Of a DNA stretch of 64,000 nucleotides, positions 20,897 to 42,624 are shown in pieces (position 1 is the first letter of the stretch; each line of letters opens with the position of its first letter). The stretch is from Dehalococcoidia bacterium (lineage in GTDB: Bacteria > Chloroflexota > Dehalococcoidia > GIF9 > AB-539-J10), in contig JAUWYX010000004.1 of the NCBI GenBank assembly GCA_030615625.1, positions 76,708-140,707 on the forward strand. The letters run 5' to 3'. The position numbers were made by a program, and so were the translations under genes. The notes beneath the pieces are model-generated. The model ran no database searches. It was not told where the DNA came from and was given only the letters and a program-made list of their open reading frames with translations.

Positions 20897-21241
20897 ATGG
20901 CAGCAGAAGGAAAAGGAAAGAGAAAGAGTAGTCCACGGGGTTTCTATAGCCGGGCCTTGGATGAGGCAGAAAAGCTCGAACTGGAGGAAGCTTCTCATGT
21001 CGAAGGAATCGACGAGGAGATTGCCCTTCGCAGAGTGAAGATCAGGGAACTTTTAGAAGAGCAGCCGGAGCGAATTGACCTGCACTTCGAGGCAGCCAAT
21101 ATCATAGCCCGGCTGGTAAGAACCCGATATCAAATTACCAAAGAGCAGAAGAAGTCCCTCAAGGAAGCCATCCAGAAAGTCTTGACCGAAGTTGCTGTGC
21201 CCCTGGGGGTTGGTATCGGAATTAAAGCAGCAAGCAAGTAA
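20897..21241 (+). CDS. hypothetical charged protein
   Basis: 114-aa Lys/Glu-rich ORF lying just upstream of a family-C palindrome. Confidence 0.35.
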   Translation: MAAEGKGKRKSSPRGFYSRALDEAEKLELEEASHVEGIDEEIALRRVKIRELLEEQPERIDLHFEAANIIARLVRTRYQITKEQKKSLKEAIQKVLTEVAVPLGVGIGIKAASK

Positions 21242-24187: not shown

Positions 24188-24316
24188 TTTTCCCTCCTTC
24201 TTTCTTTACCGTTGTTTCCTCTTTTCTTATTTGTCACTGCGAGGCTGTTTAATTTCGTCTAGCTTTGGAACCAGATTTGTTTTGGCTTTCCGGGAAATTC
24301 TTCACCTCCAGATTTT

Positions 24317-24367
24317 GTAGTGCGACCCTTCAGGGTCGTGCAGCACGAGGCCAAAGCTTCGCACTAC
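24317..24367. repeat. REP palindromic element (family A)
   Basis: gtagtgcgacccttcagggtcgtgc...cacgaggc.aaagc.tcgcactac, with terminal inverted repeat gtagtgcga/tcgcactac. Confidence 0.8.
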
Positions 24368-24408
24368 GTTTTTAAACATTCATTCGCTACCTTTATTCCC
24401 CTTCCTCC

Positions 24409-26004: not shown

Positions 26005-26067
26005 TTGACCAACCTCCTTTTTGCTATTATAAACGAAAATGCCACTAAAAAGTAAGTACCTTATTGG

Positions 26068-27624: not shown

Positions 27625-27659
27625 TTGACTAATCTCTCGCTATTATAACCGAAAATGCC

Positions 27660-27850
27660 ACTAAAAAGTAAATGCCGTATTGACTAAATTCCAAAATCCA
27701 AACTCTAAACAAGTCCAAATATCAAAATTCAAATCTCTAAACAATGACAAAGATCAAGCGTCAAATCAAGCCCAAAATCCAAATGACAAAACGAAGTAGT
27801 TTTGACATTTAATCATTTGGATTTCAGTTGTCATTGGGATTTTGAAATTT
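27660..27850. repeat. family-C variant (ccaaat-type) palindromic element
   Basis: Arms ccaaaatccaaatgacaaaacg ... cagttgtcattgggattttg. Confidence 0.5.
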
Positions 27851-27893
27851 GGGTTTGTTCAGGATCGGGGCTTGCCCCCGACCATTCACCACC

Positions 27894-27930
27894 GAGATTG
27901 CTTCGCCCCGACTTGTCGGGGCTCGCAAAT
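27894..27930 (-). repeat. family-B palindromic element (reverse orientation)
   Basis: gagattgcttcg-ccccgacttgtcgggg-ctcgcaaatg. Consensus: gtcattgcgagc-[GC hairpin]-g(t/a)(a/g)gcaatctc. Confidence 0.7.
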
Positions 27931-28082
27931 GTAGTGCGACCCTTCAGGGTCGTGCCGCCCTTTGCACGAGGCTAAAGCCTCGCACTACAGTTTTATGCCT
28001 TTGCACTGGATTTTGTAGTGCGACCCTTCAGGGTCGTGCCGGCCCTTGCACGAGGCTAAAGCCTCGCACTACAGGCTGTAAA
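27931..28082. repeat. two REP elements (family A) abutting the RAYT 3' end
   Basis: Copies at 27931-27988 and 28015-28082. Confidence 0.8.
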
Positions 28083-28551
28083 TGGTTTCTAATTCAAATG
28101 AGCCTGAATAGGGATAGCTGCTACAATCCTCTACCATCCCCTTCCTGACAGGGTTTTGGATTATATATCGGGCTACAGCCCTGGTGGCTTCATCGTTTCT
28201 CAACACATGTTCGTAATAATTTGCCCCCCATAACTGCACACCATAAATGCCTTTGAACCAATAAGCAGTTTTCTGTTTGAACAAGGTGACAAAGTCCTTC
28301 ATATCTGCATTGCTATTCTTTCCTTCTATTAGCAGATGCACGTGATCGGGCATAAAGCAGTATGCCCAGACTAAGAAACTTTCCTGCTCACACGTACTCT
28401 TTAGAATCTCGATTACTTTGGCGACGACTTCATCATTCACGAAATGATGTTTAAAACCTTGTGAGCGTATAGTGATGAAATATCGATAATAACCGCGATA
28501 AGAAAAGCTCTTAAGTCTCCTTGGTTTTTCGTGTTCTCTGCTTGGCATCAC
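28069..28551 (-). mobile_element. REP-associated tyrosine transposase (RAYT, IS200/IS605 TnpA-like)
   Basis: 160 aa with an HuH motif (HVHLLIE) and a catalytic-Tyr region (YIIQNPV). Flanked on both sides by REP palindromes. Confidence 0.75.
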
Positions 28552-28585
28552 TGATATTGATCGATAAATTGTAACATAACCGTGT

Positions 28586-28985
28586 TGTAGTGCGACCCTT
28601 CAGGGTCGTGCCGCCCTTTGCACGAGGCTAAAGCCTTGCACTACATTGTTTGTGCCGTTTATGTGGGTATCGTAGTGCGACCTTTTAAGGTCGTGCCATC
28701 CCTTGCACGAGGCTAAAGCCTCGCACTACATGTTTGTGCCATTTATGTGGGTATCGTAGTGCGATCCTTCAGGGTCGTGCCGCCCTTTGCACGAGGCTAA
28801 AGCCTCGCACTACATTGTTTGTGCCGTTTATGTGGGTATCGTAGTGCGACCTTTTAAGGTCGTGCCATCCTCATGCACGAGGCTAAAGCCTCGCACTACA
28901 TTGTTTGTGCCGTTTATGTGGGTATCGTAGTGCGACCTTTTAAGGTCGTGCCATCCTCATGCACGAGGCTAAAGCCTCGCACTAC
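28586..28985. repeat. tandem array of five REP elements (family A) with identical 27-bp spacers
   Basis: Units at 28586, 28681, 28756, 28841 and 28927. The spacer attgtttgtgccgtttatgtgggtatc recurs between units. Confidence 0.85.
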
Positions 28986-29089
28986 ATTAGAATGACAATA
29001 GTCAAAGAAAGGGGGAGGGGCGGCTTGTGGCCGCCCCTCCTAGGAATCACCTTTACCTCTCCCTTAAGAGAGGGTCAGGTGGGGTGTGC

Positions 29090-32000
29090 TTATACTCGAC
29101 GAGTCCTGAAGATGAGCACTATTACTACAATCACCAGGGCAGCGCCGATGCCGATGACTACCCATACCCAGTACGGAGTTACCGGCTGGGCTGGGTGCGC
29201 CTCAGCAGTGTGCGCTTCGAGTTCCGCCTGAGTGTCGAAGCACAGACCGTCCTGTGGACAACAGAACGCACCCGTTGGTGCTGTGGTGAAGCTGCCTACG
29301 GCGCTCATGCTTATGACAGCGCCCTCACTGTAGGCGGTCACCTGCCAGTAGTAGGTGGTGCCGTAGTCCAGCGTTCCGGTGTACGTGGTGGCTGTGTTCC
29401 TCAGCCCCTCTTCTTTTTGGACGGGACTGGACAGGTCAGCGTTCTTGGACAGCACCCAGTCGAACTCATCAGCTTCCGCCAGCAAGTCCCAACTGAAGCC
29501 CACGTTCTTTGTACCCACACCCATGGCTCCCGGTTCAGGAGCGACAAGCGTTATTTGTGCGGCTTCTATGCTGGGGGGAACAGTGAAGCTCTCACCCACG
29601 GTCCACCAGCTGTGGATTACCTGACCGGTGGCGGCTTCAGAAGCCCTTACCCTCCAGTAGTAGGTCTGTTCACAGGAAAGTCCTCCAGCTAGTCCTCCCA
29701 TGACGGAGTAACTCGGGATGTCTCCTGTAATGCCACTTATTATGTAGTCCGTCGCGGGATCGCCTTCCGCATTTACCTGCACCGGCATGGTGAATTCCTC
29801 GTCCAGTGCGAACTGTATCTCATACACGCAAGCATCGCACAGGCCGTCCCAGGTCAGGGTAAATGGCGCGCTGTAACATGAACAGGGGTCGGCTTTGACT
29901 TCAGGGGTTTCAGTATCGGGAGCCTTCTTGGCATAGCAGTCCTCAAAGGTCCAGACGCTGCCGGCTTCGTTGTCTACGAAGTCATAGTCATGGCGGTCAA
30001 TGGCAAAGAGCTTGGTGTTGCTGTCTGCCGTCAGGCAGCCGCAAATCTTCAGTGCGTCGGGCCACGCTTCGAAGCTCTCTACATCAACGGTTAGTCCCAT
30101 CCACAGGAAGTCCCAGGTGAGACAGGTCACGCATACTGTAACCTCACGCTCGAGAGAGCGGGCTACGCCGGTGAACATAGTCATCTCGTAGTCGCCCCAA
30201 TAGCTGGCGTAGATAACGCCGCCGTTCTCAGCGTCGGTGTAGGGATTGCCCGGTCTATCCACGACCAGTCCGGTGAAGTTCACCTCTACGGGCTCATCAT
30301 CGTCCGTGTCTGCGTCGTAAATACCGATCTGCCACTCTCGAGGCTCGGCTTTGAGGTCCATCCAATCTGTGCTTTCGCCAATGACCCACTTATAAATACC
30401 GTTCTCAGTTCCGGGGGCTTCGGCTAAGGCAGCGTAGATTACATCGTTGGCGTCGAAGTAGGTGTCGAAGGCCACTGTAACGTAGCCACCGGTGGTGACA
30501 TCCTCCAACGCGGTGAATGTTTCACCGCCATCGTCGGAGTAGGCAACATCTCCATCATTGCCGCCGACCAGTACGTAGTCGCCCCAAACGGCGATGGTAT
30601 AACCATCAGCGACCTCGCTGTCGACTGATTCATGCCAGCCGATAGCATAGTCATCGGACATGGCAACATCGCCACCGTTATCCAGGGCAAAGATGGTCTC
30701 CTTGTCCAGCACTGCCAGGTCTACGATATTGTCTACAGAGGCACTTCCAAAGTCCCAGCAAGCCAGGCCTTCCAGCTCATTCCAGTAGACGTTATCGGTA
30801 TAGTAGTCAAAGAGATAGACGGTATCGCCGGTCGTTTCCTCGGGATTTAGCCTGAGTATGCCGGCTTCTAAAGTGCCATCCCCCCACGCGGCGCCCTCGA
30901 GCGAGCCGTGCCAGACGCGAAGCCAGTGTTCGCTGTATTCGCTGTATCCAAATTCGGGAAGGTCATCGCCGTACAGCCAGACGCTGTCGCAGCCGCAACC
31001 CCTCCCATCATCGTTAACACTGACCACCCAGGTCTTGTTGCAGTCGGGCGACACGGCGACATCGGAGAAGTAGTTAATATTGGTGTCAATCAAACTGAGC
31101 TGGTTCCAGACATCTCCGTCGTCGAAGCTTACCGACCAGGCGCCCTCGTCATATAATTGCCCCCCCATAGGTGGACCCAGGGCAACAGCATAAGCCTTGT
31201 CGGCGCTTACGAAGAATGCCGCCATGGCAAGTCTCCCCGAGGGTGGCTTGCAGGCCTCTTCCCAGGGCAGGCAGCAGATGTCCATATTGGTGATTTGAGT
31301 GTTGCGGTAGACGTCCACGCCCTCGCAGCACGCTGCAAGCACTGGAAGTCCCATCGCCATTGTTCCGTCGCCCAGCAGGCCGGCTATAGCCTTACCTTCA
31401 GCTATGTAGCCCAGGTAATGGACGTTGGTCAGCCAGGGTGTGCCATCTATCTGCTGGTTGACTTCCATGACAGACTTGTTTTTCACACGGAATATCTTGC
31501 CCACTGCTGTGGGCCCGGCAGCAATGTAGTTCACGTTTACCCAGGCATACCTCTTATCTGAGTTCCGGCCGGAGTAGTCCAGGGGCAGTGTTATGCCCGC
31601 TGTCGCTGCGCCAAGGGTTATCCATGGGATGTTTATGCCTAAACCACTGACTACAGCCACAGCATCGATGGCCAGAATTGAGTCCAGGTTCCAGCCTTCG
31701 CTGGTTCCCCAGGTGCCGCATTGGAGGTAGAGTGTGCCAGGGGCGTCAACGGTGGCAACCAGGATGGTCTTGTCCGCAGCCCAGCTGGGGGCGAATTTGA
31801 TGTCAACAACGGCTTCAGAGATGAAGGCAGGCCCAGCAGGCGGGTACTCCTCATCCCAGCCTGAATAGTCCGTAGTATCTGTGGCATCTTCCCAGTTACT
31901 GGCCGAAGCTCCGGTAGCCGTGGAGCGCCAGAGCTCGGCGGTACCCCCATCGGTGCCGCCGATAGCCATGTCACGCTTGCCAGCCACTTCTGGGGAGACT

Positions 32001-32536
32001 TCGAGTTCATAGACCCAAGCGGGGTTCATGAACGCCGTCATAAAGGCACCGGTGTCCTCGAAGTTGTCCCCACCGTCATCGGAGATAAACACATGCACGG
32101 TGGTCCCAGGTATATCGAGGGCAACAGCCACGAAGTCGGCGTCCACGCCATCCGTGGCCACTTTCAGCAATGTTAAACCGGTCACGCCGGCCTCGTCCTC
32201 TATTGCATCGGTGATGTCCTTCCAGGTGGCGGCGCCGTCATCTGACTTCAACAGACAGAATCCTTCAAGTGAGAGGTCTCCGTCCATATCAAAATCGCTA
32301 TCGACGATAGCGTAGGCCACGTCTCCGCCGTCAGCCACGGCAAAATCGACGATTGTGGAGTTGGGTGCCATGAGCCAGTCGTCTATGGTGGGAGTAGTGA
32401 CCCGCGTCCAGTCGCTGAGACCGGGGTCGGCACTCACCTTGTGGGCTGGTATCGCTACAATTATCAAACTTATGGCCAGTGCCGCAGCGATGAATAAATA
32501 CATCGCCTTGGCTGGCCACGCTCTTGCTTTAATCAT
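29090..32536 (-). CDS. large secreted surface protein (beta-propeller/BNR-like repeats, two FN3-like modules, C-terminal TM anchor)
   Basis: 1148 aa with a signal peptide and Trp/Gly/Asp-rich repeats. YYWRV/YYWQV FN3-like modules resemble the C-termini of the 24409 and 26068 proteins. Ends in a TM helix plus RTRRV. Confidence 0.6.
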   Translation of the reverse strand: MIKARAWPAKAMYLFIAAALAISLIIVAIPAHKVSADPGLSDWTRVTTPTIDDWLMAPNSTIVDFAVADGGDVAYAIVDSDFDMDGDLSLEGFCLLKSDDGAATWKDITDAIEDEAGVTGLTLLKVATDGVDADFVAVALDIPGTTVHVFISDDGGDNFEDTGAFMTAFMNPAWVYELEVSPEVAGKRDMAIGGTDGGTAELWRSTATGASASNWEDATDTTDYSGWDEEYPPAGPAFISEAVVDIKFAPSWAADKTILVATVDAPGTLYLQCGTWGTSEGWNLDSILAIDAVAVVSGLGINIPWITLGAATAGITLPLDYSGRNSDKRYAWVNVNYIAAGPTAVGKIFRVKNKSVMEVNQQIDGTPWLTNVHYLGYIAEGKAIAGLLGDGTMAMGLPVLAACCEGVDVYRNTQITNMDICCLPWEEACKPPSGRLAMAAFFVSADKAYAVALGPPMGGQLYDEGAWSVSFDDGDVWNQLSLIDTNINYFSDVAVSPDCNKTWVVSVNDDGRGCGCDSVWLYGDDLPEFGYSEYSEHWLRVWHGSLEGAAWGDGTLEAGILRLNPEETTGDTVYLFDYYTDNVYWNELEGLACWDFGSASVDNIVDLAVLDKETIFALDNGGDVAMSDDYAIGWHESVDSEVADGYTIAVWGDYVLVGGNDGDVAYSDDGGETFTALEDVTTGGYVTVAFDTYFDANDVIYAALAEAPGTENGIYKWVIGESTDWMDLKAEPREWQIGIYDADTDDDEPVEVNFTGLVVDRPGNPYTDAENGGVIYASYWGDYEMTMFTGVARSLEREVTVCVTCLTWDFLWMGLTVDVESFEAWPDALKICGCLTADSNTKLFAIDRHDYDFVDNEAGSVWTFEDCYAKKAPDTETPEVKADPCSCYSAPFTLTWDGLCDACVYEIQFALDEEFTMPVQVNAEGDPATDYIISGITGDIPSYSVMGGLAGGLSCEQTYYWRVRASEAATGQVIHSWWTVGESFTVPPSIEAAQITLVAPEPGAMGVGTKNVGFSWDLLAEADEFDWVLSKNADLSSPVQKEEGLRNTATTYTGTLDYGTTYYWQVTAYSEGAVISMSAVGSFTTAPTGAFCCPQDGLCFDTQAELEAHTAEAHPAQPVTPYWVWVVIGIGAALVIVVIVLIFRTRRV

Positions 32537-32684: not shown

Positions 32685-32746
32685 GTAGTGCGACCCTTCA
32701 GGGTCGTGCCCTTTTTATTCTGCACGAGGCTAAAGCCCCGCACTAC
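32685..32746. repeat. REP element (family A)
   Basis: Same consensus as the other family-A copies. Confidence 0.8.
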
Positions 32747-32809
32747 ATCAGATTTCGTTTTTAGCTTATGCCCGGGCCAGGCATCGTTCTCTTCCCCTTG
32801 CGAATCCTT

Positions 32810-32957: not shown

Positions 32958-32985
32958 TCGCACGAGGCTAAAGCCTCGCACTACA
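32958..32985. repeat. partial REP element (3' half)
   Basis: Only cacgaggctaaagcctcgcactac is present. Confidence 0.6.
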
Positions 32986-33353
32986 CTAGCTTCCCTCCAG
33001 AATGACAGGCAAATGTCCTTAAACAGTATTCAATTATTAAAGTTCAAACAAACTCTCAAATCAATGCCAAAAGCCATAACAAAAGGCTAAGGCCTTCCTA
33101 ACCTTTAACTTTAAAACTATATAGTCTATTTTGTCAATAGGTAATCAGTAACTTACCCCAAAGATAACTTAACTTTACCAGAAATAACTTAAGTTTATTA
33201 TAGCCGCCAGCTTTCTTTTGTCAATATGCCTAATAAAGCGAGGTATCATGTGGCGGGCATACGCCACTGAACAATGACAAATGACAAAGCCCAAATAGCA
33301 AATAAAGCTCAAGGCCAAAATCCCAATTCCAAAGCATCAAATCCCAAGGCTTT

Positions 33354-33411
33354 GTAGTGCGACCTTTTAAGGTCGTGCAATGGCCTGGCACGAGGCTGAA
33401 GCCTCGCACTA
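33354..33411. repeat. REP element (family A)
   Basis: gtagtgcgaccttttaaggtcgtgc...cacgaggctgaagcctcgcactac. Confidence 0.8.
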
Positions 33412-33459
33412 CAAATTTAGCGGTGTGGGACAAAAATCCCTTGCTAAATTAGAACATAA

Positions 33460-33831
33460 GTGCTAATTTATACTCAACATGGAAGAAAGATTCGGCGAAG
33501 CCGAATGGGTAATGAGGAACGGAATATGGAAAGTAAATTGATGTGGGATTTATTGCCCGAGGAATTCCACTACGAAGATAAGGGTTGTGAGCTCTTTTCC
33601 TCCTGTCTTAACTGCCCCTTTCCTGATTGCCTTAAAGAAGAGCCCTGGGGGAAGGAGAGGTTCTTAAAGAGCAGGCGAGCCGAGAGGATGATGGAGTTGA
33701 AACGAGAAGGGAAAAGCGTTAAGGAGATTGCCCGCATATTTGAGGTGAGCCCGAGAACGGTGCAGAGATGGCTGAAGGCGGTGGAAGAAGCCTCGCAAAA
33801 TCAAAAATCAAAATGCAAAGTACAAAAGTAA
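33460..33831 (+). CDS. small Cys-rich HTH DNA-binding protein (possible small terminase/regulator)
   Basis: CxxC...CPFPDC cluster and a C-terminal HTH (KSVKEIARIFEVSPRTVQRWLK). First gene of the phage-like module. The last roughly 13 codons derive from a family-C repeat. Confidence 0.5.
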   Translation: MLIYTQHGRKIRRSRMGNEERNMESKLMWDLLPEEFHYEDKGCELFSSCLNCPFPDCLKEEPWGKERFLKSRRAERMMELKREGKSVKEIARIFEVSPRTVQRWLKAVEEASQNQKSKCKVQK

Positions 33832-33880
33832 ATTTTTGGGTTTTGCTCTGTAATTTTGATATTTAACTTTTGATCCTTGA
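33790..33880. repeat. family-C element overlapping the 3' end of the HTH gene
   Basis: Arms caaaatcaaaaatcaaaatgcaaagtacaaaag ... gctctgtaattttgatatttaacttttgatcc. Confidence 0.6.
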
Positions 33881-35390
33881 ACTGTTTTTAGAGATGACTG
33901 ACTTTAACCCATCCCATCTGAACCGCATGGACACCCAGCGCCTCGCCGCTTACCGCTCCAACCTTGATTTCTACCAGGGCACCCACTGGCCCACGCAGTC
34001 ACGCCACCGTCAGCTTGTCTTTAACTACGCTAAGGTATCCATAGACAAGCTAACCAGCTTCCTTATGCCGGGACTCGGCTTCGCCTGTTATCCCGTAGCC
34101 GACGTTGCCAGCGATAGCGAAGCAATCGAAGCCAGAGTAAGGCGAGCCGAGCAACTCCTTCGCCAGGTATATGAGCAGAACAACCTCCAGCAGCTCGATT
34201 ACGAGACCGAGATTGACACCGCCGTCTTGGGAGACGGCTGCTACAAGGTGATGTGGGATACCGAAGAGAAGCGTATCCGTATCACCGCCCCCGATGTCTC
34301 AGGCATCTATGCCTGGTGGCTTGGAGATGACACCTCGCGGGTCTGGAGGATAGCTTCAAGATACACGCTTACCTGGGATGAAATCCAGATGCTTTACGGT
34401 GATGTCATTGCGAGCGTAGCGAAGCAATCTCAGGGGATTGCCACGTCGCCCCGATTCATCGGGGCTCCTCGCAATGACGGAGGGACGTCATTGCGAGGCA
34501 CGCCAGTGCCGAAGCAATCCCAAGGAAAGAACAGAGTCGTGGTAACCGAGCTCTGGACGGATAAGGCCTTTGACCTTTACCTGGACAACGATCTCATAGG
34601 GTCCAGACCCAATCCCTATGGCTTTATCCCCTTTATCATCTTCCCCAACATCAGGGACCCCAAGCACTTCTGGGGCGTATCGGATATCCCCAGCATCATC
34701 CAGCCCCAGCGGGAACTCAACCGGGCCTTGAGCCAGCTATCCCGCATCCTGGAGCTGTCAGGCAACCCCATCGCCGTCCTGGAGAACATCGCATCAGCTG
34801 AGGACATCAAGGTCCAGCCCGGGGCCCTGTGGACCATACCGGAGGACGCTAAGGCTTATCTTCTGGACTTACTGCAAGGCGGCGGAGTCAGACTTCATGT
34901 CGATTATATCGATTTGCTATACCGTGCCCTGCACGATGTATCGGAGATGCCCCGGGCTGCCTGGGGAGGCATCGAGAAGGAGTTCTCAGGCACCGCCCTG
35001 AGGATTGAGCTCGGCAGCCTCATTCAGAAGGTGGTGCGAAAACGCACCATCAGGACCAATGTATACCACCAGCGTAATGCCATGATATTAAAGCTGGCTG
35101 AAATGTTTATGAACGAGAACTTTGAAGGAGTGAACCATAGAGTGGTCTGGGGTCCCATCCTGCCTCAGGATATAGATAGGCAGGCCCAGACCGAGCAGCT
35201 CTTGGTCCAGGCGGGAGTCCACAGCCGGAGGACCGCTATGGACGAGATGGGTGTCCAGGACCCCGACGAGGAGTTCAACAGGTGGCTGGAGGAGAGGGAG
35301 AGGATACTACAGATGAATCAGGAGTTCAGGGCAACATCCACACGTGGCGGAGCGAGAGAGAGCGGTAGCCGCGGAGATGGAAGTGCCTGA
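33870..35390 (+). CDS. phage portal protein
   Basis: 506 aa, sized and positioned upstream of scaffold and capsid genes. Contains three in-frame family-B repeat insertions (34414-34520). Confidence 0.6.
   Translation: MILELFLEMTDFNPSHLNRMDTQRLAAYRSNLDFYQGTHWPTQSRHRQLVFNYAKVSIDKLTSFLMPGLGFACYPVADVASDSEAIEARVRRAEQLLRQVYEQNNLQQLDYETEIDTAVLGDGCYKVMWDTEEKRIRITAPDVSGIYAWWLGDDTSRVWRIASRYTLTWDEIQMLYGDVIASVAKQSQGIATSPRFIGAPRNDGGTSLRGTPVPKQSQGKNRVVVTELWTDKAFDLYLDNDLIGSRPNPYGFIPFIIFPNIRDPKHFWGVSDIPSIIQPQRELNRALSQLSRILELSGNPIAVLENIASAEDIKVQPGALWTIPEDAKAYLLDLLQGGGVRLHVDYIDLLYRALHDVSEMPRAAWGGIEKEFSGTALRIELGSLIQKVVRKRTIRTNVYHQRNAMILKLAEMFMNENFEGVNHRVVWGPILPQDIDRQAQTEQLLVQAGVHSRRTAMDEMGVQDPDEEFNRWLEERERILQMNQEFRATSTRGGARESGSRGDGSA
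34414..34520 (+). repeat. three family-B elements (forward, reverse, forward) inside the portal ORF
   Basis: Copies at 34414-34441, 34449-34478 (reverse) and 34497-34520. All are translated in-frame (VIASVAKQSQG...SPRFIGAPRND...SLRGTPVPKQSQ). Confidence 0.75.
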
Positions 35391-35409
35391 ATAATAAGCT
35401 CACCCCCTT

Positions 35410-35439
35410 GTCATTGCAAGGCGAAGCCGAAGCAATCTC
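35410..35439 (+). repeat. family-B element (intergenic)
   Basis: gtcattgcaaggcgaagccgaagcaatctc. Confidence 0.7.
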
Positions 35440-35459
35440 AAGAGGAATAGGAGAAATGT

Positions 35460-35963
35460 ATGGAAAACGAAAACGAGGAAACCCAGGAAACCCCTGCCCT
35501 GAGCGAAGTCGAAGGGACCAATGAGGTTTCCACCCCCGGGGACCTGGAGGCGATCACGGCACAGCTCGAGGAGGAAAAGAAGGCCAAGGCCGCCGCTGAG
35601 GCAGCCCTGGCCGAGAAGGATGCCCGCATCGCCGAGCTGCAAGCCGAAGGCGAAGCATTGCGAGCCGAAGGCGTGGCAATCTCTGAAGCCCACGCTCAGG
35701 CCGTCACCAAATACCTCGATGCCGTCAGGGCTGCTAATCCCACTATTCCCCGGGACATCATCGCCGGCGGCACCATCGAGGACATAGACGCCTCGGTCGA
35801 GAAGGCTCAGTCCATCGCCAGCGCTGTCAGGCAGTCCTTAGAGGCTGAGGCCAAAGAGGCTAAGGTCCCCGCGGGAGCACCAGCCAGGGGCGAGATATCC
35901 CTTGAGGGCTTAACCCCCAGGGAGAAGATCGCCGCTGGAATACAACAAGGAAGTCAAGGATAA
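35460..35963 (+). CDS. phage scaffolding-like protein
   Basis: 167-aa acidic Ala/Glu-rich coiled-coil protein between portal and capsid. Contains an in-frame family-B copy (35655-35683). Confidence 0.5.
   Translation: MENENEETQETPALSEVEGTNEVSTPGDLEAITAQLEEEKKAKAAAEAALAEKDARIAELQAEGEALRAEGVAISEAHAQAVTKYLDAVRAANPTIPRDIIAGGTIEDIDASVEKAQSIASAVRQSLEAEAKEAKVPAGAPARGEISLEGLTPREKIAAGIQQGSQG
35655..35683 (+). repeat. family-B element inside scaffold ORF
   Basis: gcattgcgagccgaaggcgtggcaatctc, translated as ALRAEGVAIS. Confidence 0.7.
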
Positions 35964-36050
35964 AAATGCAAAACGCAAAAATACAGGGCAAAAATCAAAA
36001 ATTTTTCGTTTTGCTTTGTCATTTTGGTCTTTTATCTTTGATTTTTAATT
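35957..36050. repeat. family-C element between scaffold and capsid genes
   Basis: Arms aaaatgcaaaacgcaaaaatacagggcaaaaatcaaaaat ... tttgctttgtcattttggtcttttatctttgatttttaatttt. Confidence 0.7.
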
Positions 36051-36066
36051 TTGAACAGGAGGAAAT

Positions 36067-37140
36067 ATGAGTATATCTTTAGCAGAAGCAAGTAAGCTCT
36101 CGACCGATATCCTGCTTAAAGGAATCATCGAGACCATCGTCAAGGGCAGCCCCATCTTACAGGAGCTGCCCTTCATCCAGATCGTGGGCAATAGCCTGAA
36201 GTACAACCGGGAGAAGACTTTGCCCACCGTGGCCTGGTACTCCCCGGTAACCGACACCTGGACGACCTCTGAGCCGGCTTTCGAGCAGTGCTCTGCCAGC
36301 CTCTGCGTCCTTGGCGGAGACGCCGATGTTGACAACTTCCTCAAGGCCACCAGGAGTAATATCCAGGACCTCGAGGCCGCTGTCATCGAACAGAAGGCCA
36401 AGGCCTTGAGGAACGAGTTTGAGAACACCTTCCTGAACGGCGACTCGAGTGTGGACGCCAACCAACCCGATGGTCTGTATAAGACCATGAAGGGCACAGC
36501 CTGGGAGGCCACTACTGCCTATTCCCTGGGTGACATCGTCGTCCCCACTGCTGGCAAGGAGAATGGCTTCCGTTACGAGTGCACCACCGCCGGCACTTCT
36601 GGCTCAACAGAGCCCACTTGGAAGACTACCGAGGGAGAGACCAACTCCGACGGCACCGTCGTCTGGACCTGCCGGCTCGGCAACCACCTCGGCATGGCAG
36701 CGAACGGCGCCACCCTTGCCCTCGGCAAAATCGACCAGCTCATTGACCTGGTCAGAGGGGGCAAGCCCGACCTGCTCTTAATGAGCCGCCGGTCCCGGAG
36801 GAAGATCGCAGCCTTAGCCAGAGCCGCTGGATCCAATCTTCAAGTCGGACAGGGTAAGCTCGGCGAGTTCGTCGAGCTCTATAACGGCATCCCCGTCGCC
36901 ATCTCCGACTGGGTCAAGGACAACTACACCGTGGGCACGTCCAGCGATTGTTCGGCCATGTTCGCCTTCCAGATGGGAGAGGGCGCCGTCTGCGGTCTTA
37001 CCAGCCCCGAGGTGATTCAGGTCGAGCGTCTCGGCTCCCTGGAGACCAAGGACGCTTCCCGGACCAGGGTCAAGTGGTATGTATCACTGGCAAACTTTTC
37101 CATCGTCAAGGCCGCCATGCTGACAGGAGTGAGAGACTAA
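36067..37140 (+). CDS. phage major capsid protein (HK97-fold family)
   Basis: 357 aa beginning LSTDILLKGIIETIVKGSPILQELPFIQ, typical of Phage_capsid family members. An AGGAGG RBS sits at 36057-36062. Confidence 0.7.
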   Translation: MSISLAEASKLSTDILLKGIIETIVKGSPILQELPFIQIVGNSLKYNREKTLPTVAWYSPVTDTWTTSEPAFEQCSASLCVLGGDADVDNFLKATRSNIQDLEAAVIEQKAKALRNEFENTFLNGDSSVDANQPDGLYKTMKGTAWEATTAYSLGDIVVPTAGKENGFRYECTTAGTSGSTEPTWKTTEGETNSDGTVVWTCRLGNHLGMAANGATLALGKIDQLIDLVRGGKPDLLLMSRRSRRKIAALARAAGSNLQVGQGKLGEFVELYNGIPVAISDWVKDNYTVGTSSDCSAMFAFQMGEGAVCGLTSPEVIQVERLGSLETKDASRTRVKWYVSLANFSIVKAAMLTGVRD

Positions 37141-37160
37141 TGTCCATGCCAGGCAGGAAT

Positions 37161-37199
37161 GTCATTGCGAGCCCCGATTTATCGGGGCGTGGCAATCTC
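37161..37199 (+). repeat. family-B element (intergenic, full length with inner hairpin)
   Basis: gtcattgcgagc-cccgatttatcgggg-cgtggcaatctc. Confidence 0.8.
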
Positions 37200-37233
37200 C
37201 TGGCGTGCGTTTCAACCTCCTTTGTATCGAGGC

Positions 37234-37260
37234 GGGAGGGGGAAGGTCGAGCCCCCTCCC
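37234..37260 (+). terminator. GC-rich stem-loop downstream of capsid gene
   Basis: gggaggggg-aaggtcgag-ccccctccc forms a perfect 9-bp stem, but no U-tract follows. Confidence 0.3.
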
Positions 37261-37298
37261 TACCTCAGTGCGCATCGATGCGTATTGCGAGGTGAACC

Positions 37299-37889
37299 GT
37301 GAACTTAACCGAAATGAGAGCCCGGGTCCGTGAGGACCTCCAGGACACCGACAGCCAGAACTACCGCTGGACGGACGATGAAGTAGACGGAGCCATCGAG
37401 AGGGTTGTCATGGAGTACTCCCTCCATGCCCCTATCGAGCAGCAGGATGATATAGCCACCACCGACGGAGATACTGAGCTCGATATCTCCTCCCTCACAG
37501 GCTTGCTCAAAATCGAGTCAGTCGAGTTCCCTATCGGCCAGGCTCCTAAATATCTCCAGCGGACCGAGTACTGGGCCGGCCACTTTTATATGGAGGACGA
37601 AGGTGACGGAGAAGACGCCCGTGTAAGATGGCTTAAGAAGCACACCCTGGACGCCGAGTTCACCACCATCCCCGCCGAGCACGAGGAGATTATCGTTTTG
37701 GGCGCCACTGGCTACCTGGCCATGTCGGCAGCCGCTTATACTGTGGACAGGGCCAGCATCGCCGGCCGCCACGCCACCATCAACTACAAGGCCTGGGGCA
37801 AGGAACGGCTGAGCCGCTACGACAAGAAGCTTAAGCAGATTGCCCAGGGAAACCGAGTAATCCAGAGGCAGCTCTACACCGAAGATTAA
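37299..37889 (+). CDS. phage head-tail connector-like protein
   Basis: 196 aa. The N-terminus (MNLTEMRARVREDLQDTD...DDEVDGAIERV) resembles gp6-type connector/adaptor proteins. Confidence 0.4.
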   Translation: MNLTEMRARVREDLQDTDSQNYRWTDDEVDGAIERVVMEYSLHAPIEQQDDIATTDGDTELDISSLTGLLKIESVEFPIGQAPKYLQRTEYWAGHFYMEDEGDGEDARVRWLKKHTLDAEFTTIPAEHEEIIVLGATGYLAMSAAAYTVDRASIAGRHATINYKAWGKERLSRYDKKLKQIAQGNRVIQRQLYTED

Positions 37890-37980
37890 AATGCAAAATG
37901 AAAAGAGCGAAAACACAGAGCAAAAATCAGAATCTTTACATTTTAATCTGTCATTTTGATTTTTGACTTTTGAGGTTTGA
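37890..37980. repeat. family-C element
   Basis: Arms aaaatgcaaaatgaaaagagcgaaaacacagagcaaaaatcag ... attttaatctgtcattttgatttttgacttttg. Confidence 0.7.
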
Positions 37981-37983
37981 TTT

Positions 37984-38193
37984 ATGTTGGAAGTCGGCAT
38001 CCTCAAAAACTTCGACGGGGGTACCTACAAGGCCGGCGTTCAGCTCGCAGGGTCCTTGACTACCTATTTCGACAACCTTAATGTCGCCCGGAATATTGCC
38101 TCGGCCGAGATGGTAACCGGCCGCCACGTAATCCTGGCGATCCCCGAGGGAAACCCAAGGGACGCCGTAGTCATCGCAGTATTCACCGTATAA
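37984..38193 (+). CDS. hypothetical phage-module protein
   Basis: 69-aa ORF inside the structural cluster. Confidence 0.35.
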   Translation: MLEVGILKNFDGGTYKAGVQLAGSLTTYFDNLNVARNIASAEMVTGRHVILAIPEGNPRDAVVIAVFTV

Positions 38194-38202
38194 GGAGGAA
38201 CC

Positions 38203-38547
38203 GTGCCTAAATCAAGAGTAAAGGAAGCAGTAGAAAAAGAGAAGACCAAAGAGGGACTACCCAGGGAAGCCTTCGCCATCGTCGGCGACCCCCAGGATCC
38301 TGAGACCTGGAAGCTCCCCCACCACACCAGGGCCATCATGCGCGCCCTCCAGGGAAGGCTCGATATCGAGAGGACCGTGGACTGGGACCGCATGCCTGCA
38401 GCCGTCGCCGCCCTCAGCCGGGGCGGTTACCGCGGGGAGAGGGTCCAGGCCTCAGAGGAGGACATCATCCAGGCCGCCCGGCATTTAGCCAGGCACTATG
38501 AAAAGGCTGGGAAGTCCGTCCCCGACACCCTGGGCGCCCTGATTTAA
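38203..38547 (+). CDS. hypothetical phage-module protein
   Basis: 114-aa ORF. Confidence 0.4.
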   Translation: MPKSRVKEAVEKEKTKEGLPREAFAIVGDPQDPETWKLPHHTRAIMRALQGRLDIERTVDWDRMPAAVAALSRGGYRGERVQASEEDIIQAARHLARHYEKAGKSVPDTLGALI

Positions 38548-38650
38548 CATAACCATACTCAGGAACGAAACCCATGAGTGTAATAAGTGGCAAAAGGGGA
38601 AAGAGGGGCTTTCTCGAGCCTCTCAGAGCCTGTTCAGCAAAGGAGGAAAC

Positions 38651-38884
38651 ATGCCGGAGGAACAGAACAAAGCTAGTCCCAACCTCGTGACGGTCTTTTG
38701 CGATTTTTTCCGAGCCGCCACCAGGCCTGTTGTTACCGTCATTTTCGCCGCCGTCATCGCCCAGGTCGTCATCGACAGAATCGACGCCCCCCAGTGGTTC
38801 CTGGGCCTGGCCATCCCAATAATTGGCTGGTGGTTTACCGAGCGGACGGTGCAGCACATCAAGGAGAAGAAGGAGCAAAGCTAA
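38651..38884 (+). CDS. small two-TM membrane protein (holin-like)
   Basis: 77 aa with two hydrophobic helices and a charged C-terminus. Confidence 0.35.
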   Translation: MPEEQNKASPNLVTVFCDFFRAATRPVVTVIFAAVIAQVVIDRIDAPQWFLGLAIPIIGWWFTERTVQHIKEKKEQS

Positions 38885-39135
38885 TGCCTCGAGACGAGGA
38901 CAAGGGATTCCTGAAAGGCCTTAACATTCACGGCTTCATGGACGTCTACCAAGAATGGCACGCCTTCGTCAATGGCTTTTGCGAGGTCCTTTGCCCCTGG
39001 CGGGCGAAGTATGAACCCTCCGAAGAATTACTAAATGACTTGAAGGGGGATCATCATTACTATATGTTCGGCCGAGCCATCGGCGTCATCGCCTGGCTCA
39101 TCATCGCTAAAATCATCAAGGAGGTCTTCTTTTAA
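38885..39135 (+). CDS. small membrane protein (C-terminal TM)
   Basis: ATG at 38885 abuts the stop of the previous gene. 83 aa ending GVIAWLIIAKIIKEVFF. Confidence 0.35.
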
Positions 39136-39773
39136 TGGCTAAATCAGGAATTAAGCACATAGACGTCGGCCTCGAGCTCACCAAGACGGAGTGGGAGAGC
39201 GAGGAGAGCCACGAGCTCATTCACGGCAATAGCTTCCCGTCCTCGCCCGTCGAACGTCAGCTCTTCTACCGGGACGACGAGCATAAATGGTATATCTACA
39301 ACGGTTCGGCCTGGGTTGACCTTCAGGGTACTGGCGGCGGAGTCATGGACAAGTCTTGCCGGGTTCACCATTCCACAGACCAGACACTACCAACTGGCAC
39401 CGTGGTATTCTCTGCTTTTGATACTGAGGTCTGGGACACCGACGAAATACACGACACCGTCACCAATAATAGCCGGCTAACCTGCAAGACAGCAGGCAAG
39501 TATATGATTGCTGGCGGCGGTCAGTTTGTTGCCAACGCCACAGGAAGACGGCATGCTCAAATCAAGCTGAATGGGACTACGGTCATAGCTGGACAGCACT
39601 TTCAGGCGGTGACTGATAGCGGTGGTGTTACCAGCCTTACAATAGGTACCATTTATAGCTTGGCTGTGAACGACTATGTGGAGCTAGGATTTTATCAAGC
39701 ATCTGGAGGAGACTTGGATTTGCAGGGTGGGCAGATATACTCCCCCTGGTTTAGTATGGCAAGGATAGCATGA
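39135..39773 (+). CDS. phage fibre/receptor-binding-like structural protein
   Basis: 212-aa Gly/Thr-rich beta-type sequence (GGGQFVANATG...). Its start overlaps the stop of the previous gene. Confidence 0.35.
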   Translation: MAKSGIKHIDVGLELTKTEWESEESHELIHGNSFPSSPVERQLFYRDDEHKWYIYNGSAWVDLQGTGGGVMDKSCRVHHSTDQTLPTGTVVFSAFDTEVWDTDEIHDTVTNNSRLTCKTAGKYMIAGGGQFVANATGRRHAQIKLNGTTVIAGQHFQAVTDSGGVTSLTIGTIYSLAVNDYVELGFYQASGGDLDLQGGQIYSPWFSMARIA

Positions 39774-41854
39774 GAACCCTGACTGCTACCTTGGAAGCTG
39801 TCCAGAAGAAGCCCCACCGCCTACCCTACGTCGAAGCCGAAGTCTATGACTACGAGCAGGGTATTAAACGCCTCACGTGGACACGCATCTATACCGGCAG
39901 CGAGCCCGACAATCATCACGGTCTCACCTTCGATGGTAACGGCGATATGCACCGCATCCGGGTAGAAGGCAGCAACCTTTACTATCAGAAGCTCTTCTCC
40001 CCCTTCAACGCTCCCCCTTCGTTTCCTCTTTCCTTCCCCATCTCCCTCGTTTCTTGGTTCGATGAATGGGAGCTCATAGCCACCGACTATGCCGGTTCCT
40101 GTGCCATCGCCGCCTGTGGAGCCAAGGTCTATATCTTCTACCGCACCACCGGCAACGTCCTCTGGAAGTATTATAGCCATGACTACGGCGACACCTGGGA
40201 TGACGCCCAGCTCGTTGACTATGCCGACGTCCTTTCTATGGCTGCGTGCTGGTGGGGGATCGGCGACATCGTCGTCTGCTTCGCCCTTAAGTCCAACGAG
40301 CTTAACGGCATAACCCTGGACACCAGCACCCAGGAAGCCACTCAACACACCTGGACCGACGCCAACCATCCCTTGCTCAGTATCTACGGCATCGGCGCTA
40401 CTTTCAACGCCTTCTGGCCATGCTGCGAGATAGTCCTTGCTGCTAAGGAGTCCGACACCCCCTATAATCACTTCGATCTATTCCGTACCTGGTTTTTGGA
40501 TACCTACAACTTTGGTGCCCTCGAGAGCTTCCTTATGTCCCCGGACGGAGAAGATATCACCTATGAATACCCCGACTGCCACCTGCCGGCATCGGCCCAG
40601 AGCTACGAGACGAACCGTATCATCGCTGTAGAGAAGTTCGCAGGCACCACCGCCTACACCCGTCCCCTCGCTTGCCTCATGGTAAAAGGCACGTATTGGA
40701 GCGATACGACCTTTACCGAGCCTAAGCCCTTCCTGGACGTCAGCCCGGCCTATGGGCTCAGAATCGCCAGCACTGCCGACTATTGGTGGCTGGAAAAGCC
40801 CGACGGAGTCTGGAGAGCCCCCCGCCCCGCCGACTCGCCCCTCGACTTGACCAAGGACATCGTGACATTGCAAACAAATGTCATTGCGAGCCCGACTTCA
40901 GTCGGGCGTGGCAATCTCGTACTGGAGCTCGATAACTCCAAAGGCCAATATAACGTAGGGGAGGGTCTTGTACCCTCCCTCATTAACAAGCGCAGCGAAA
41001 TCGTCCTCAAGCTCGGCTATAAGACGACGGCAGGCAAGGAGACCTCCGAGGCCGGCACTTACTGGGTGGATTCCTGGGAGTACTCCTCCAAGCCCAACAT
41101 GTCCCGCTTCATCCTCACCTGCCTGGACGGCTGGGGCCTCATGGACCGCTGGACCGCCCGATACCAGATGAGGTGGAACAAGGACGAAGTCAACCCCAAG
41201 AGCGTCTGGCAGATCCTTTACCAGCTCTTAGCCCGTGCCGGCATCAAGCTCACCAACACCCCCGCCAAACCCCAGTCCTCCGCCATTAACAACTTCTACC
41301 CCGACTTCACCGTCAACCCTGGCACTCAGGGAGACACCGCAATACGCAAGCTCCTATCGTTCGTCCCCGACAAACTCATATTCCGTGGCCAGGAGGCCTT
41401 CACCAAGAACCCACTGGCCAGCGAGGAAAGCTGCTACTCCTACGGCACAGGCCACGCCATCCTCAGCGGTAAATACATCGAGGCCGTCACCGTCTCCCGC
41501 GCCCGGGCCATCGGCCGGGACAGCGGCGATAACCGCATCCTGGAAGAAGCCCTGGACTGGGACTTACTCGCCCTGGCCATTGACCAGCTCGAGCAGGACT
41601 ATGACCCCAACCTCCAGACCGCCACCAGGGCCCAGGAGAGGGCCGACGCTCTCTTAAGAGAGGCGTCATTGCGAGCGCAGCGCGGCAACCTCGTAGTCCC
41701 CACCAACTGTGGTCAGGAGCTCCTCGATGTCGTCGAGGTCACCGACGAGCGCTGCGGCATCTCGGAGGAGAAGTATAGGGTCGAGGCCATCCAGACCGAT
41801 TACGACCGCCGCCAAGGAATTTACACTCAGCGTCTGGCGCTCTGTGCCCCATGA
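39770..41854 (+). CDS. large phage structural protein (tail/baseplate or tailspike-like)
   Basis: 694 aa with a BNR-like YGDTWDD motif. Contains two in-frame family-B insertions (40880-40918, 41665-41692). Confidence 0.4.
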   Translation: MRTLTATLEAVQKKPHRLPYVEAEVYDYEQGIKRLTWTRIYTGSEPDNHHGLTFDGNGDMHRIRVEGSNLYYQKLFSPFNAPPSFPLSFPISLVSWFDEWELIATDYAGSCAIAACGAKVYIFYRTTGNVLWKYYSHDYGDTWDDAQLVDYADVLSMAACWWGIGDIVVCFALKSNELNGITLDTSTQEATQHTWTDANHPLLSIYGIGATFNAFWPCCEIVLAAKESDTPYNHFDLFRTWFLDTYNFGALESFLMSPDGEDITYEYPDCHLPASAQSYETNRIIAVEKFAGTTAYTRPLACLMVKGTYWSDTTFTEPKPFLDVSPAYGLRIASTADYWWLEKPDGVWRAPRPADSPLDLTKDIVTLQTNVIASPTSVGRGNLVLELDNSKGQYNVGEGLVPSLINKRSEIVLKLGYKTTAGKETSEAGTYWVDSWEYSSKPNMSRFILTCLDGWGLMDRWTARYQMRWNKDEVNPKSVWQILYQLLARAGIKLTNTPAKPQSSAINNFYPDFTVNPGTQGDTAIRKLLSFVPDKLIFRGQEAFTKNPLASEESCYSYGTGHAILSGKYIEAVTVSRARAIGRDSGDNRILEEALDWDLLALAIDQLEQDYDPNLQTATRAQERADALLREASLRAQRGNLVVPTNCGQELLDVVEVTDERCGISEEKYRVEAIQTDYDRRQGIYTQRLALCAP
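40880..40918 (+). repeat. family-B element inside 39770-41854 ORF
   Basis: gtcattgcgagcccgacttcagtcgggcgtggcaatctc, translated as VIASPTSVGRGNL. Confidence 0.8.
41665..41692 (+). repeat. family-B element inside 39770-41854 ORF
   Basis: gtcattgcgagcgcagcgcggcaacctc, translated as SLRAQRGNL. Confidence 0.7.
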
Positions 41855-42102
41855 CAAATTATTGGGAATGTTTAGTAGCGTCATTCTGGGGAGTCCAAAT
41901 GAATTTAGATGATGAAGCATCTCGGAAATTCTTCGCGGAGCCTGTCCTGAGCGGCACAAGATTCTTCGGTAGTGGGTCAATTTGAAAATGGTAAAAGTCT
42001 TTGAACTATCCTGAAATGAAGACAATGGCTTGACAAATAGTCAAGTTGTGATATAATAAAAGCAGTTATCACTATGAAAAGAGGCGACGTAGGGTTTTGT
42101 CC

Positions 42103-42624
42103 CTACGAAGTCTCTTTTCGGTTATATAGATCTCTCATGATATCATCTAAGTAGAATATCCGTATTTTAGTATGTAGTTTTCTGAGCAGATAGGAACATC
42201 CACCTCTACTACAAGCTATTAGGCATTCTAGTTTACCCTTATCGTGTAGGTATTCGACTAAACAAGCATAATCACCGTCGCTTGCTATTATTACTGCCTT
42301 TGCATAATTTTCATAATCCACCATAGACTGCAATGTCAGATTTACGTCTACGTTACCTTTAATTTCATCTTCGTGGGTAGCTACTTCTTTAAATTTCAAT
42401 TCATATCCTTGTCTTCTTAACTGGTCATATAAACTCTTGTATTCCGGTACATAACCAATAAAATAATAGGCAACCTTAACAGCATGTTTTTCCATAAGAT
42501 AGACTCGGAATTCATTCAAATCTAATTTTACCTCAAGCGCTTCAACTTCTTTTTCAAGTGATTGGAGTGATTTGTAAAAGTTCTGACCATCAATGAAGGC
42601 ATAATTCGCTGGCACTTCATGCAT
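42103..42624 (-). CDS. NYN-domain (LabA-like, PIN-fold) protein
   Basis: An N-terminal AFIDGQNF motif and internal IIASDGDY acidic residues, as in NYN RNases. Confidence 0.6.
   Translation of the reverse strand: MHEVPANYAFIDGQNFYKSLQSLEKEVEALEVKLDLNEFRVYLMEKHAVKVAYYFIGYVPEYKSLYDQLRRQGYELKFKEVATHEDEIKGNVDVNLTLQSMVDYENYAKAVIIASDGDYACLVEYLHDKGKLECLIACSRGGCSYLLRKLHTKIRIFYLDDIMRDLYNRKETS

Follow-up and report, generated by a model that had tools for sequence, protein, structure and literature searches.

A phage-derived capsid, adaptor and tail-hub locus of a Dehalococcoidia bacterium, candidate remnant of an immobilised provirus resembling gene transfer agents

A block of phage-like genes at positions 33460-41854 of a 64,000-nucleotide stretch of Dehalococcoidia bacterium DNA (contig JAUWYX010000004.1 of assembly GCA_030615625.1; the whole stretch is referred to here as the window) raises the question of whether it is a decaying prophage, a still mobile element or a particle-forming locus kept by its host. 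The original prediction, made from the letters alone, described a head-only module with a lone terminase gene some distance away, either a degraded prophage or a domesticated, tailless particle locus. We give an even chance to a reading in which the locus would be the structural half of an anciently immobilised provirus, probably domesticated in the manner of gene transfer agents (GTAs). Judged from sequence and predicted structure, the module is not head-only, since it has its own head-to-tail adaptor, a tail hub and a conserved partner of 69 amino acids (aa). The predicted packaging and virion genes are listed below, with E-values of profile matches in brackets; ORF stands for open reading frame and HTH for helix-turn-helix.

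20897-21241, + strand: TerS-like small protein (small terminase subunit), 114 aa, called from its position directly 5' of TerL and from PHROG matches of an ortholog
21434-22807, + strand: TerL, large terminase subunit (Terminase_6C, 9.6e-7); the ORF opens at 21362 and homologs align from the ATG at 21434
33526-33831, + strand: Cys-rich HTH protein, first gene of the structural operon (HTH_23, 2e-9; Sigma70_r4_2, 3.7e-6; late activator phrog_836, 3e-5); the ORF opens at 33460, with 33526 as likely start
33894-35390, + strand: portal (PF05133, 3.5e-20; phrog_64, 1.2e-29); the ORF opens at 33870, with 33894 as likely start
35460-35963, + strand: scaffold-like Ala/Glu-rich coiled-coil protein, called from position and composition
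36067-37140, + strand: major capsid protein, HK97 fold of epsilon15/SU10 type, 357 aa (phrog_212, 7.4e-59; NF045672, epsilon15 gp7 type, 4.8e-45; PF05065, 5e-9)
37299-37889, + strand: head-to-tail adaptor of T7 gp11/SU10/KHP30 type, 196 aa, called from PF24175 (SU10_adaptor) and fold matches
37984-38193, + strand: s69, conserved 69-aa protein, next to the hub gene in most loci
38203-38547, + strand: p114, 114-aa protein, called from its conservation
38651-38884, + strand: small membrane protein 1, with a hydrophobic 19-mer (phrog_6637, function not known, 2.7e-6)
38884-39135, + strand: small membrane protein 2, with a C-terminal hydrophobic 19-mer as anchor
39135-39773, + strand: 212-aa virion protein of a variable cassette (phrog_13989, virion structural protein, 1e-11)
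39770-41854, + strand: tail hub, 694 aa, with an N-terminal beta-propeller and a C-terminal hub of gp27/Mu gp44/VgrG type, called from an AlphaFold2 (AF2) model and Foldseek

The profile matches bear out the HTH, portal and capsid genes of the original prediction. The scaffold call is likewise borne out by the position of its gene in the gap between portal and capsid genes and by the Ala/Glu-rich coiled-coil composition of the product; the protein has no family match, and the call is made from position and composition alone. Occurrence of single genes was counted, here and below, over 80 loci, and ORFs were clustered over 46 long loci. A scaffold-like gene lies between the portal and capsid genes in 76 of the 80 loci, and the HTH gene precedes the portal gene in 57, being absent there in a compact, integrase-bearing form of the element described below. 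Profile searches found no protease gene in the module. The portal is under purifying selection among close relatives, with a pairwise dN/dS of 0.09-0.13. The best cultured relative of the capsid protein is that of Streptomyces phage Rowa, with 34% identity. The window capsid carries an insertion of ~50 aa (36469-36672, residues ~135-202) that is missing from the 306-aa capsids of a lineage in the Dehalococcoidales; residues 135-202 match the head decoration family phrog_20658 (1.6e-14) and, weakly, the carbohydrate-binding module CBM_5_12.

The connector of the original prediction is best described as an adaptor. PF24175 matches the window copy at 2.4e-5, slightly below the cut-off, and annotates most of its 3119 homolog clusters, and a profile matches PDB 7wmp_m (adaptor gp12). 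The top Foldseek matches are all podovirus adaptors (7wmp_m of KHP30, E 7.6e-4, TM 0.51; 8jov_G; 7box_N; 6r21_M), from phages KHP30, GP4, T7 (gp11), N4 and SU10. The model is of low confidence (predicted local distance difference test, pLDDT, 57), and these fold matches were used only in support of the Pfam evidence.

Structure prediction, which the original prediction had suggested as a check for hidden tail functions, revealed one in the 694-aa protein that had been taken for a fibre. The AF2 model, built from an alignment of 41 sequences (pLDDT 85.2, predicted TM-score 0.79), consists of an N-terminal beta-propeller and a C-terminal gp27-type hub. Foldseek against the PDB assigned the C-terminal ~350 residues to the baseplate-hub fold (E 1e-15 to 1e-10, TM to target ~0.7), with matches to 7aef_q (9.5e-16), 1wru (Mu gp44, 8.8e-15), VgrG, T4 gp27, the hubs of extracellular contractile injection systems and pyocins, and siphophage tail tips. 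The N-terminal half resembles fucose lectins, with PLL lectin propellers at 4e-9. Viral tail proteins in BFVD matched the hub down to 2.7e-19, and its family comprises 605 clusters at 50% identity (E<=1e-30); tblastn gave no match in 50,697 phage records. The 50 listed Foldseek matches of the hub include no nozzle protein. The third tail candidate, s69, is found in 56 of the 80 loci, usually directly after the hub; it has no family or PDB match and might conceivably serve as a plug or spike of the hub. Sequence searches of the PDB with TerL, hub, capsid protein, portal and s69 returned nothing useful. Within the module, profile searches found no tube, sheath, tape-measure, lysin or recognised fibre gene. 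The predicted lack of integrase, tail and lysis genes thus holds for integrase, tube, tape measure and lysin, and fails for the tail as a whole, since the adaptor and hub are tail genes.

Relatives of the locus indicate that this short tail may be all there is. A compact form of the element, found in IMG/VR and on one contig of a metagenome-assembled genome (MAG), encodes a tyrosine integrase (PF00589, 1.8e-36), an 85-aa protein, TerS and a TerL abutting the portal, followed by scaffold, capsid, adaptor, small proteins and hub, and then by PolX-like and HTH genes. Elements of this form are ~20 kb long (L292/L303, which is IMGVR_UViG_3300027740_000108, L251, L248, L256, L131, L152 and L006), and the contigs L251, L248, L256 and L292 are circular permutations of each other. 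In L006, L131 and L292 integrase or prophage-type genes are present, unlike at the window locus. One compact contig of 19,976 bp repeats its start at its end over 137 nt (136/137 identical), which marks it as a genome of ~19.8 kb that is either circular or terminally redundant. Only proteins of 76-194 aa are encoded between the adaptor and the hub (1048 aa) of this contig, with no tape measure and no tube seen. As this relative has no other tail genes, adaptor and hub probably make up the complete tail of the family, in disagreement with the tailless module originally proposed. In L292, hardly any convincing ORFs lie at ~1.5-3.4 kb, and by eye no gene for replication can be made out.

Capsid relatives occur in at least 455 species-representative genomes, and the best 80 are nearly all titled Dehalococcoidia, Dehalococcoidales or Chloroflexota. 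They appear to represent a large, undescribed family of small, short-tailed viruses specific to Dehalococcoidia. The gene order recurring in the 46 long loci starts with TerS and TerL, then one or two TIG genes and a 68-aa HTH_17 protein on the opposite strand, and continues with HTH, portal, scaffold, capsid, a variable cassette, adaptor, sometimes p114 and small membrane proteins, hub and s69. Minimal versions (L026, L056 and L068) are reduced to HTH, portal, scaffold, capsid, adaptor, hub and s69. Portal, capsid, adaptor and hub each give an intact, single and uninterrupted match in 33 of 38 evaluable species loci. The synteny comparison that the original prediction had called for found the locus at a shared site in close relatives and its gene order conserved across the family. 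A locus with many same-strand ORFs (L038) was considered as a full phage and rejected, its neighbours being host genes (alcohol dehydrogenase, CoA ligase, dprA, topA and xerC); it is a capsid-adaptor-hub-s69 remnant. Two members lie near transformation genes: comEC is beside the L006 integrase (L006 2906-4576, - strand), and dprA is three genes past s69 in L038 (16135-17268). This proximity may be chance.

The terminase belongs with the module. A full-length TerL with intact Walker and nuclease motifs does lie at 21.4-22.8 kb, as predicted; it aligns over its full length with the terminase of Bacillus phage vB_BboS-125 (30% identity, E 5e-44), and 16 orthologs all show its Walker A (RQGGKNE), Walker B (LLEIDE) and nuclease Asp residues unchanged. 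The GKN variant of Walker A was considered as the mark of a dead terminase and ruled out, since the terminase of the cultured phage vB_BboS-125 has the identical motif. TerL is not alone, as had been thought, although it is distant from the module in the window. A TerS-like gene stands immediately upstream of TerL in 16 related loci; profile searches gave no family match for the window copy itself, and an ortholog matches three TerS PHROGs, phrog_1889 (6.8e-7), phrog_370 and phrog_509. In the window the pair stands 10.6 kb from the structural module with cellular genes between. In L058 and L055, TerS-TerL stands just before the HTH-portal block and no TIG gene intervenes, and in L006 TerL abuts the portal directly; the terminase is therefore part of the module and not a stray gene, and the window pair has apparently been displaced by inserted cellular genes. 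G+C content at third codon positions (GC3) is 0.55 for window TerL, and TerS, TerL and HTH are all host-like, at 0.53-0.55. The closest IMG/VR relative of window TerL is only 73% identical, compared to 96% for the window capsid protein. Because it is intact, host-like in GC3 and so distant from its best IMG/VR match, the terminase looks like an old, retained gene pair.

Long residence is clearest in the Dehalococcoidales lineage, whose capsid is ~50% identical to that of the window. By independent gene calls, its loci neighbour an XRE regulator, an FAD oxidoreductase, rpsU, yqeY, purSLQ and a radical-SAM gene, and no integrase homolog was found within 10 kb of the locus. Module GC3 (0.62-0.64) equals that of the flanks, portal and hub distances correlate with host-gene distances (rho 0.5-0.83), and capsid identity between species averages 82-84% vs 45-72% for flanking host proteins. 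The span from TerS to s69 in these loci is 10-15 kb. The window lineage in turn shares a right flank consisting of a 186-aa protein, an MBL-fold protein, a 224-aa protein, prepilin peptidase, DUF72 and uvrC, and its portal, capsid, adaptor, p114 and hub have pairwise dN/dS of 0.09-0.25 at dS 0.5-1.5.

These data fit the evenly weighted reading stated at the outset. The origin is proviral, seeing that integrase-bearing relatives of ~20 kb exist, one of them with a terminal repeat, and the window copy would have lost its integrase and non-structural genes. The ancestry of the "degraded prophage" thus survives, and simple decay does not, in view of the intact genes, the conserved site and purifying selection. 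The same three observations speak for a domesticated particle locus, although not for the tailless one imagined. Retention by selection, that is, domestication of the GTA kind, is suggested by the intactness, the conserved site, the ameliorated and intact terminase and the Dehalococcoidales pattern; GTA-like activity seems the most likely because every virion and packaging gene is intact and constrained. Somewhat below even, we place the more specific proposal that this is an independent GTA lineage, widespread in Dehalococcoidales and related Dehalococcoidia, which arose from a new family of ~20-kb temperate viruses with an adaptor-on-hub tail.

From the gene content we infer how particles might be produced, filled, released and delivered. 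Induction, possibly via the sigma-r4-like HTH protein, would lead to capsid assembly on portal and scaffold, and TerS-TerL would fill the capsids with DNA. The virion would consist of an epsilon15/SU10-type capsid (portal, scaffold and capsid protein, no protease) and a minimal tail, namely a T7-type adaptor, a trimeric gp27-type hub with lectin-like propellers, and the 69-aa partner. Cultured Dehalococcoidales, among them Dehalococcoides, have an S-layer and no peptidoglycan, which for this MAG is an assumption; the absence of a lysin fits this lack. The small membrane proteins may help release from a host probably without peptidoglycan, and the propeller-hub would bind surface glycans of related cells for DNA delivery.

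Several points weigh against this reading. In a survey of metagenomes scanned with the flanking MBL protein, the module was missing, wholly or for the most part, from the window's own site in 10 of the 42 close relatives with enough upstream sequence to judge. The whole module is gone in L168, L220 and L228, the HTH gene alone is left in L175 and L213, and only remnants of portal or hub persist in L233, L234 and L239. In L178 (6788-9259) and L194 (6786-9259), portal through adaptor are lost and the HTH gene is followed by a full-length hub, either by recent deletion or as a hub useful alone. These deletions imply that the element is ancestral at the window site and yet dispensable. Structural genes of the window lineage have a GC3 of 0.68-0.77, above all 36 host genes (maximum 0.62), a contrast with the flanks that relatives of the window repeat. 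Module dS is 2-5 times flank dS in this lineage. Compact-form capsids are often nearest to fixed-form ones, with up to 96.7% identity, so the intactness and low dN/dS of the window copy could have been imported from free viruses by recombination. The adaptor model has low confidence (pLDDT 57), the structure matches returned offer no solved example of a hub docked on an adaptor with neither tube nor nozzle, and further tail genes could lie outside the window.

Most of these points feed the main rival, an inert, grounded provirus without function for the cell that looks intact and constrained because integrase-bearing relatives, infecting the cell or resident beside it, overwrite it by homologous recombination; we consider it unlikely. 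It accounts well for the intermixing of the two forms: fixed (56 loci) and compact (15 loci) elements are not separate clades for portal, capsid, adaptor or hub, mean identities within either form and between them are all ~80%, and nearest neighbours often belong to the other form. It also accounts for a structural-gene GC3 like that of free elements and unlike that of the host, for the raised dS and the mosaic of identities between genes of the module, for deletions with remnants in 10 of the 42 relatives, and for repeat elements inserted in portal and hub. In L160, a 35-aa TerL remnant sits beside the portal. We read these data as a structural block that recombined with circulating viruses over an older resident terminase. 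It is this terminase that fits an inert relic poorly, being host-like in GC3, at most 73% identical to any IMG/VR copy and intact with all motifs. The Dehalococcoidales lineage fits poorly as well, as its GC3 matches that of the host, housekeeping genes flank the locus and the capsid is better conserved than host genes; moreover, 33 of the 38 species loci are intact, and the repeats were inserted without breaking the reading frame. For the window lineage, the inert relic remains a live explanation in view of GC3, dS and deletions; for the Dehalococcoidales lineage this holds much less.

Continued mobility is a further alternative, which we rate as quite unlikely. In situ packaging would start at a pac site close to TerS and take in the 21-kb stretch from TerS to hub, inserted genes included, or a related virus would move this stretch; it would spread in the manner of a transducing unit or satellite. 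The length of that stretch (20,958 bp) is close to the 19.8-kb free genome, free relatives occur in the same lineage and the two forms recombine frequently. Window scans, however, detected no integrase or attachment repeats, the site is identical in dozens of relatives, and since TerS to s69 takes up no more than 10-15 kb in the Dehalococcoidales, the agreement in length is probably a coincidence.

Capsid-forming phage-inducible chromosomal islands (cf-PICIs) have integrase and replication genes, lack tail parts and use helper tails. A helper-dependent island of this kind, making heads only, is very improbable here: the locus resembles one as a small element with its own capsid, portal and terminase, no long tail and no tube, sheath, tape-measure or fibre genes, but it brings its own adaptor and hub, integrase and replication genes are missing from the window, and the terminally repeated relative without further tail genes marks the short tail as the family's own.

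Like GTAs (RcGTA of Rhodobacter capsulatus, one of the Alphaproteobacteria, and the other independent lineages), the locus consists of head and packaging genes of phage origin in a chromosome, with no integrase, replication or lysogeny genes beside them. Its position recurs across species and its genes show signs of purifying selection, again as in GTAs; in the Dehalococcoidales lineage alone, composition also matches the host. Vertical inheritance is accordingly best seen there, with housekeeping flanks, host GC3 and co-divergence. The window lineage has the shared site and dN/dS of 0.09-0.25, yet also the 10/42 deletions, foreign GC3 and mixing with integrase-bearing forms. A capsid capacity below the length of the locus, typical of GTAs, may well not apply, because the free relative packs ~19.8 kb and the window spans 21.0 kb from TerS to hub. 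There is no homology of layout: the 15-gene head-tail cluster of RcGTA (with protease, tube, tape measure and hub) is not matched, and the RcGTA adaptor appears only at rank 28 (E 1.5) in the adaptor Foldseek search, whereas the present locus combines an epsilon15/SU10-type capsid with adaptor and hub only, without protease, tube or tape measure. A further difference is that integrase-bearing free relatives still circulate and recombine with fixed copies. GTA particles carry host DNA taken more or less at random.

The virion genes resemble several phage types in part. Similar to podoviruses (T7 gp11/SU10/KHP30 adaptor, epsilon15-type capsid), the locus has the adaptor fold and 196-aa size, the capsid family, a protease-free scaffold and a very short tail; it differs in placing a gp27-type hub with an N-terminal propeller at the position of a gp12-type nozzle, and no fibre genes were recognised. 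The C-terminal ~350 residues of the hub share the fold of baseplate hubs (T4 gp27, Mu gp44, VgrG and the N-terminal domain of siphophage Tal), but known hubs end a tube with tape measure, Dit or sheath, partners that neither this locus nor the terminally repeated relative encodes. The lectin-like propeller is an extra domain. Phage Rowa and related siphoviruses share the capsid family (31-34% identity) and the order TerS, TerL, portal, scaffold, capsid, adaptor, but Rowa also has protease, head closure, neck, terminator, tube, chaperones, tape measure, minor tail proteins and lysin, all absent here. An intact temperate prophage would have integrase, attachment repeats, immunity and replication genes contiguous with its virion genes; profile and repeat scans of the window found none of these in or adjoining the module. 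Nor does a tailocin or contractile injection system fit, with capsid and terminase present and sheath and tube not found.

The smaller genes between adaptor and hub vary more. The 114-aa p114, with a pairwise dN/dS of 0.08-0.13 among close relatives and no family match, is 70-92% identical even where the capsid protein is ~50% identical, and is nonetheless absent from many loci. The two small membrane proteins agree with the original prediction. Homologs of the second cover only 38884-39135 of the ORF 38698-39135, and small two-segment membrane proteins (c26, c30) occupy the equivalent place in distant loci. The 212-aa virion protein occurs in only a few relatives; other loci have lectin-type cassettes at the same place or after the capsid gene, e.g. 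LamG (4e-11).

Outside the module, the window consists of host genes, including an A/V-type ATPase operon, a release factor, RadC, a phosphate transporter and UvrC. Its only recombinase (52995-53840) is Xer-like and lies beside uvrC, 11 kb from the module; the sole tRNA is at 62.8 kb, and Rfam and tRNA scans found nothing near the module. The genes between TerL and the HTH gene were assigned by Pfam; RAYT denotes a transposase associated with repetitive extragenic palindromes (REP):

23009-32536, - strand: intervening cellular genes, namely a CetZ-like tubulin, two TIG/Ig surface proteins, a RAYT with REP arrays and a 1148-aa protein

Whether these genes are part of the system is uncertain. 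Both TIG proteins carry a signal peptide, and a membrane anchor at the C-terminus, and an opposite-strand TIG gene lies between TerL and HTH in 30 of the 46 long loci. The CetZ-like tubulin (23009-24187, - strand; Tubulin 2.6e-32, CetZ_C 8e-20) directly follows TerL in what is a bacterial genome, and homologs 50-54% identical lie upstream of the module in the distant loci L032, L054 and L064. An archaeal origin, prompted by the CetZ match, was ruled out, the close relatives being all Dehalococcoidia. An NYN-domain gene (42103-42624, - strand) directly follows the hub; it is kept in some close relatives (L241 21459-21998) and missing in others. The Dehalococcoidales loci, too, have an NYN gene in their downstream flank. 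Two perfect sigma-70 consensus promoters (TTGACA-16-TATAAT) flank the module, one (33224-33197, - strand) directed away from the HTH gene and the other (42030-42057, + strand) just past the hub gene.

The repeats reported for every gap of the module are real, but that wording was overstated, as two copies lie inside coding sequence. The palindromic repeat GTCATTGCGAGC has 6 matches vs 0.32 expected, and copies of GTCATTGCGAGC...GCAATCTC lie at 34401-34529 (portal), 37158-37199, 40877-40918 (hub) and 41665-41692. In frame, the portal insertion (~34401-34529) adds 38 aa and is shared with L048 in the alignment, and the hub insertion (40877-40918) adds 14 aa, NVIASPTSVGRGNL; both are reminiscent of Rickettsia palindromic elements. 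An 89-nt A-rich/T-rich imperfect palindrome occurs three times, just 3' of the HTH, scaffold and adaptor genes (33795-33883, 35963-36051 and 37895-37983; families D5, I4 and I8), and could be a terminator, an attenuator or another mobile repeat. Upstream, a Y1 transposase (IS200-like, RAYT-type; 28069-28551) is flanked by arrays of 26-32-nt hairpin repeats, which extend over 27926-28991 and have solitary copies before the module at 32685-32752, 32959-32990 and 33354-33418.

Literature searches on GTAs or capsid loci in Dehalococcoidia and Chloroflexota returned nothing relevant and no description of the locus. The IME1 elements of Dehalococcoides are filamentous-like and without the hallmark genes of tailed viruses (bioRxiv 10.64898/2026.09.15.751708); they were considered as relatives and set aside as unrelated for that reason. 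As far as these searches reach, the virus family and its tail layout are new, and a grounded or domesticated provirus is as such a known kind.

If the proposed reading is correct, the locus is a candidate for a new GTA lineage; to our knowledge, only a handful of independent ones are known, none of them in Chloroflexota. The adaptor-plus-hub tail, without tube or nozzle, is unlike any solved structure among the matches returned, and such an architecture would suit hosts with an S-layer and no peptidoglycan, like the cultured Dehalococcoidales. As fixed copies and free viruses exist side by side and exchange sequence, domestication may be studied here with both states present. The locus would also provide a concrete mechanism of gene flow across hundreds of species of Dehalococcoidia, which are globally abundant, hard to culture and important for dehalogenation. 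We know of no genetic tools so far for organohalide-respiring and subsurface Chloroflexota, in which such particles would be a route of gene exchange and possibly a delivery vehicle for genetics.

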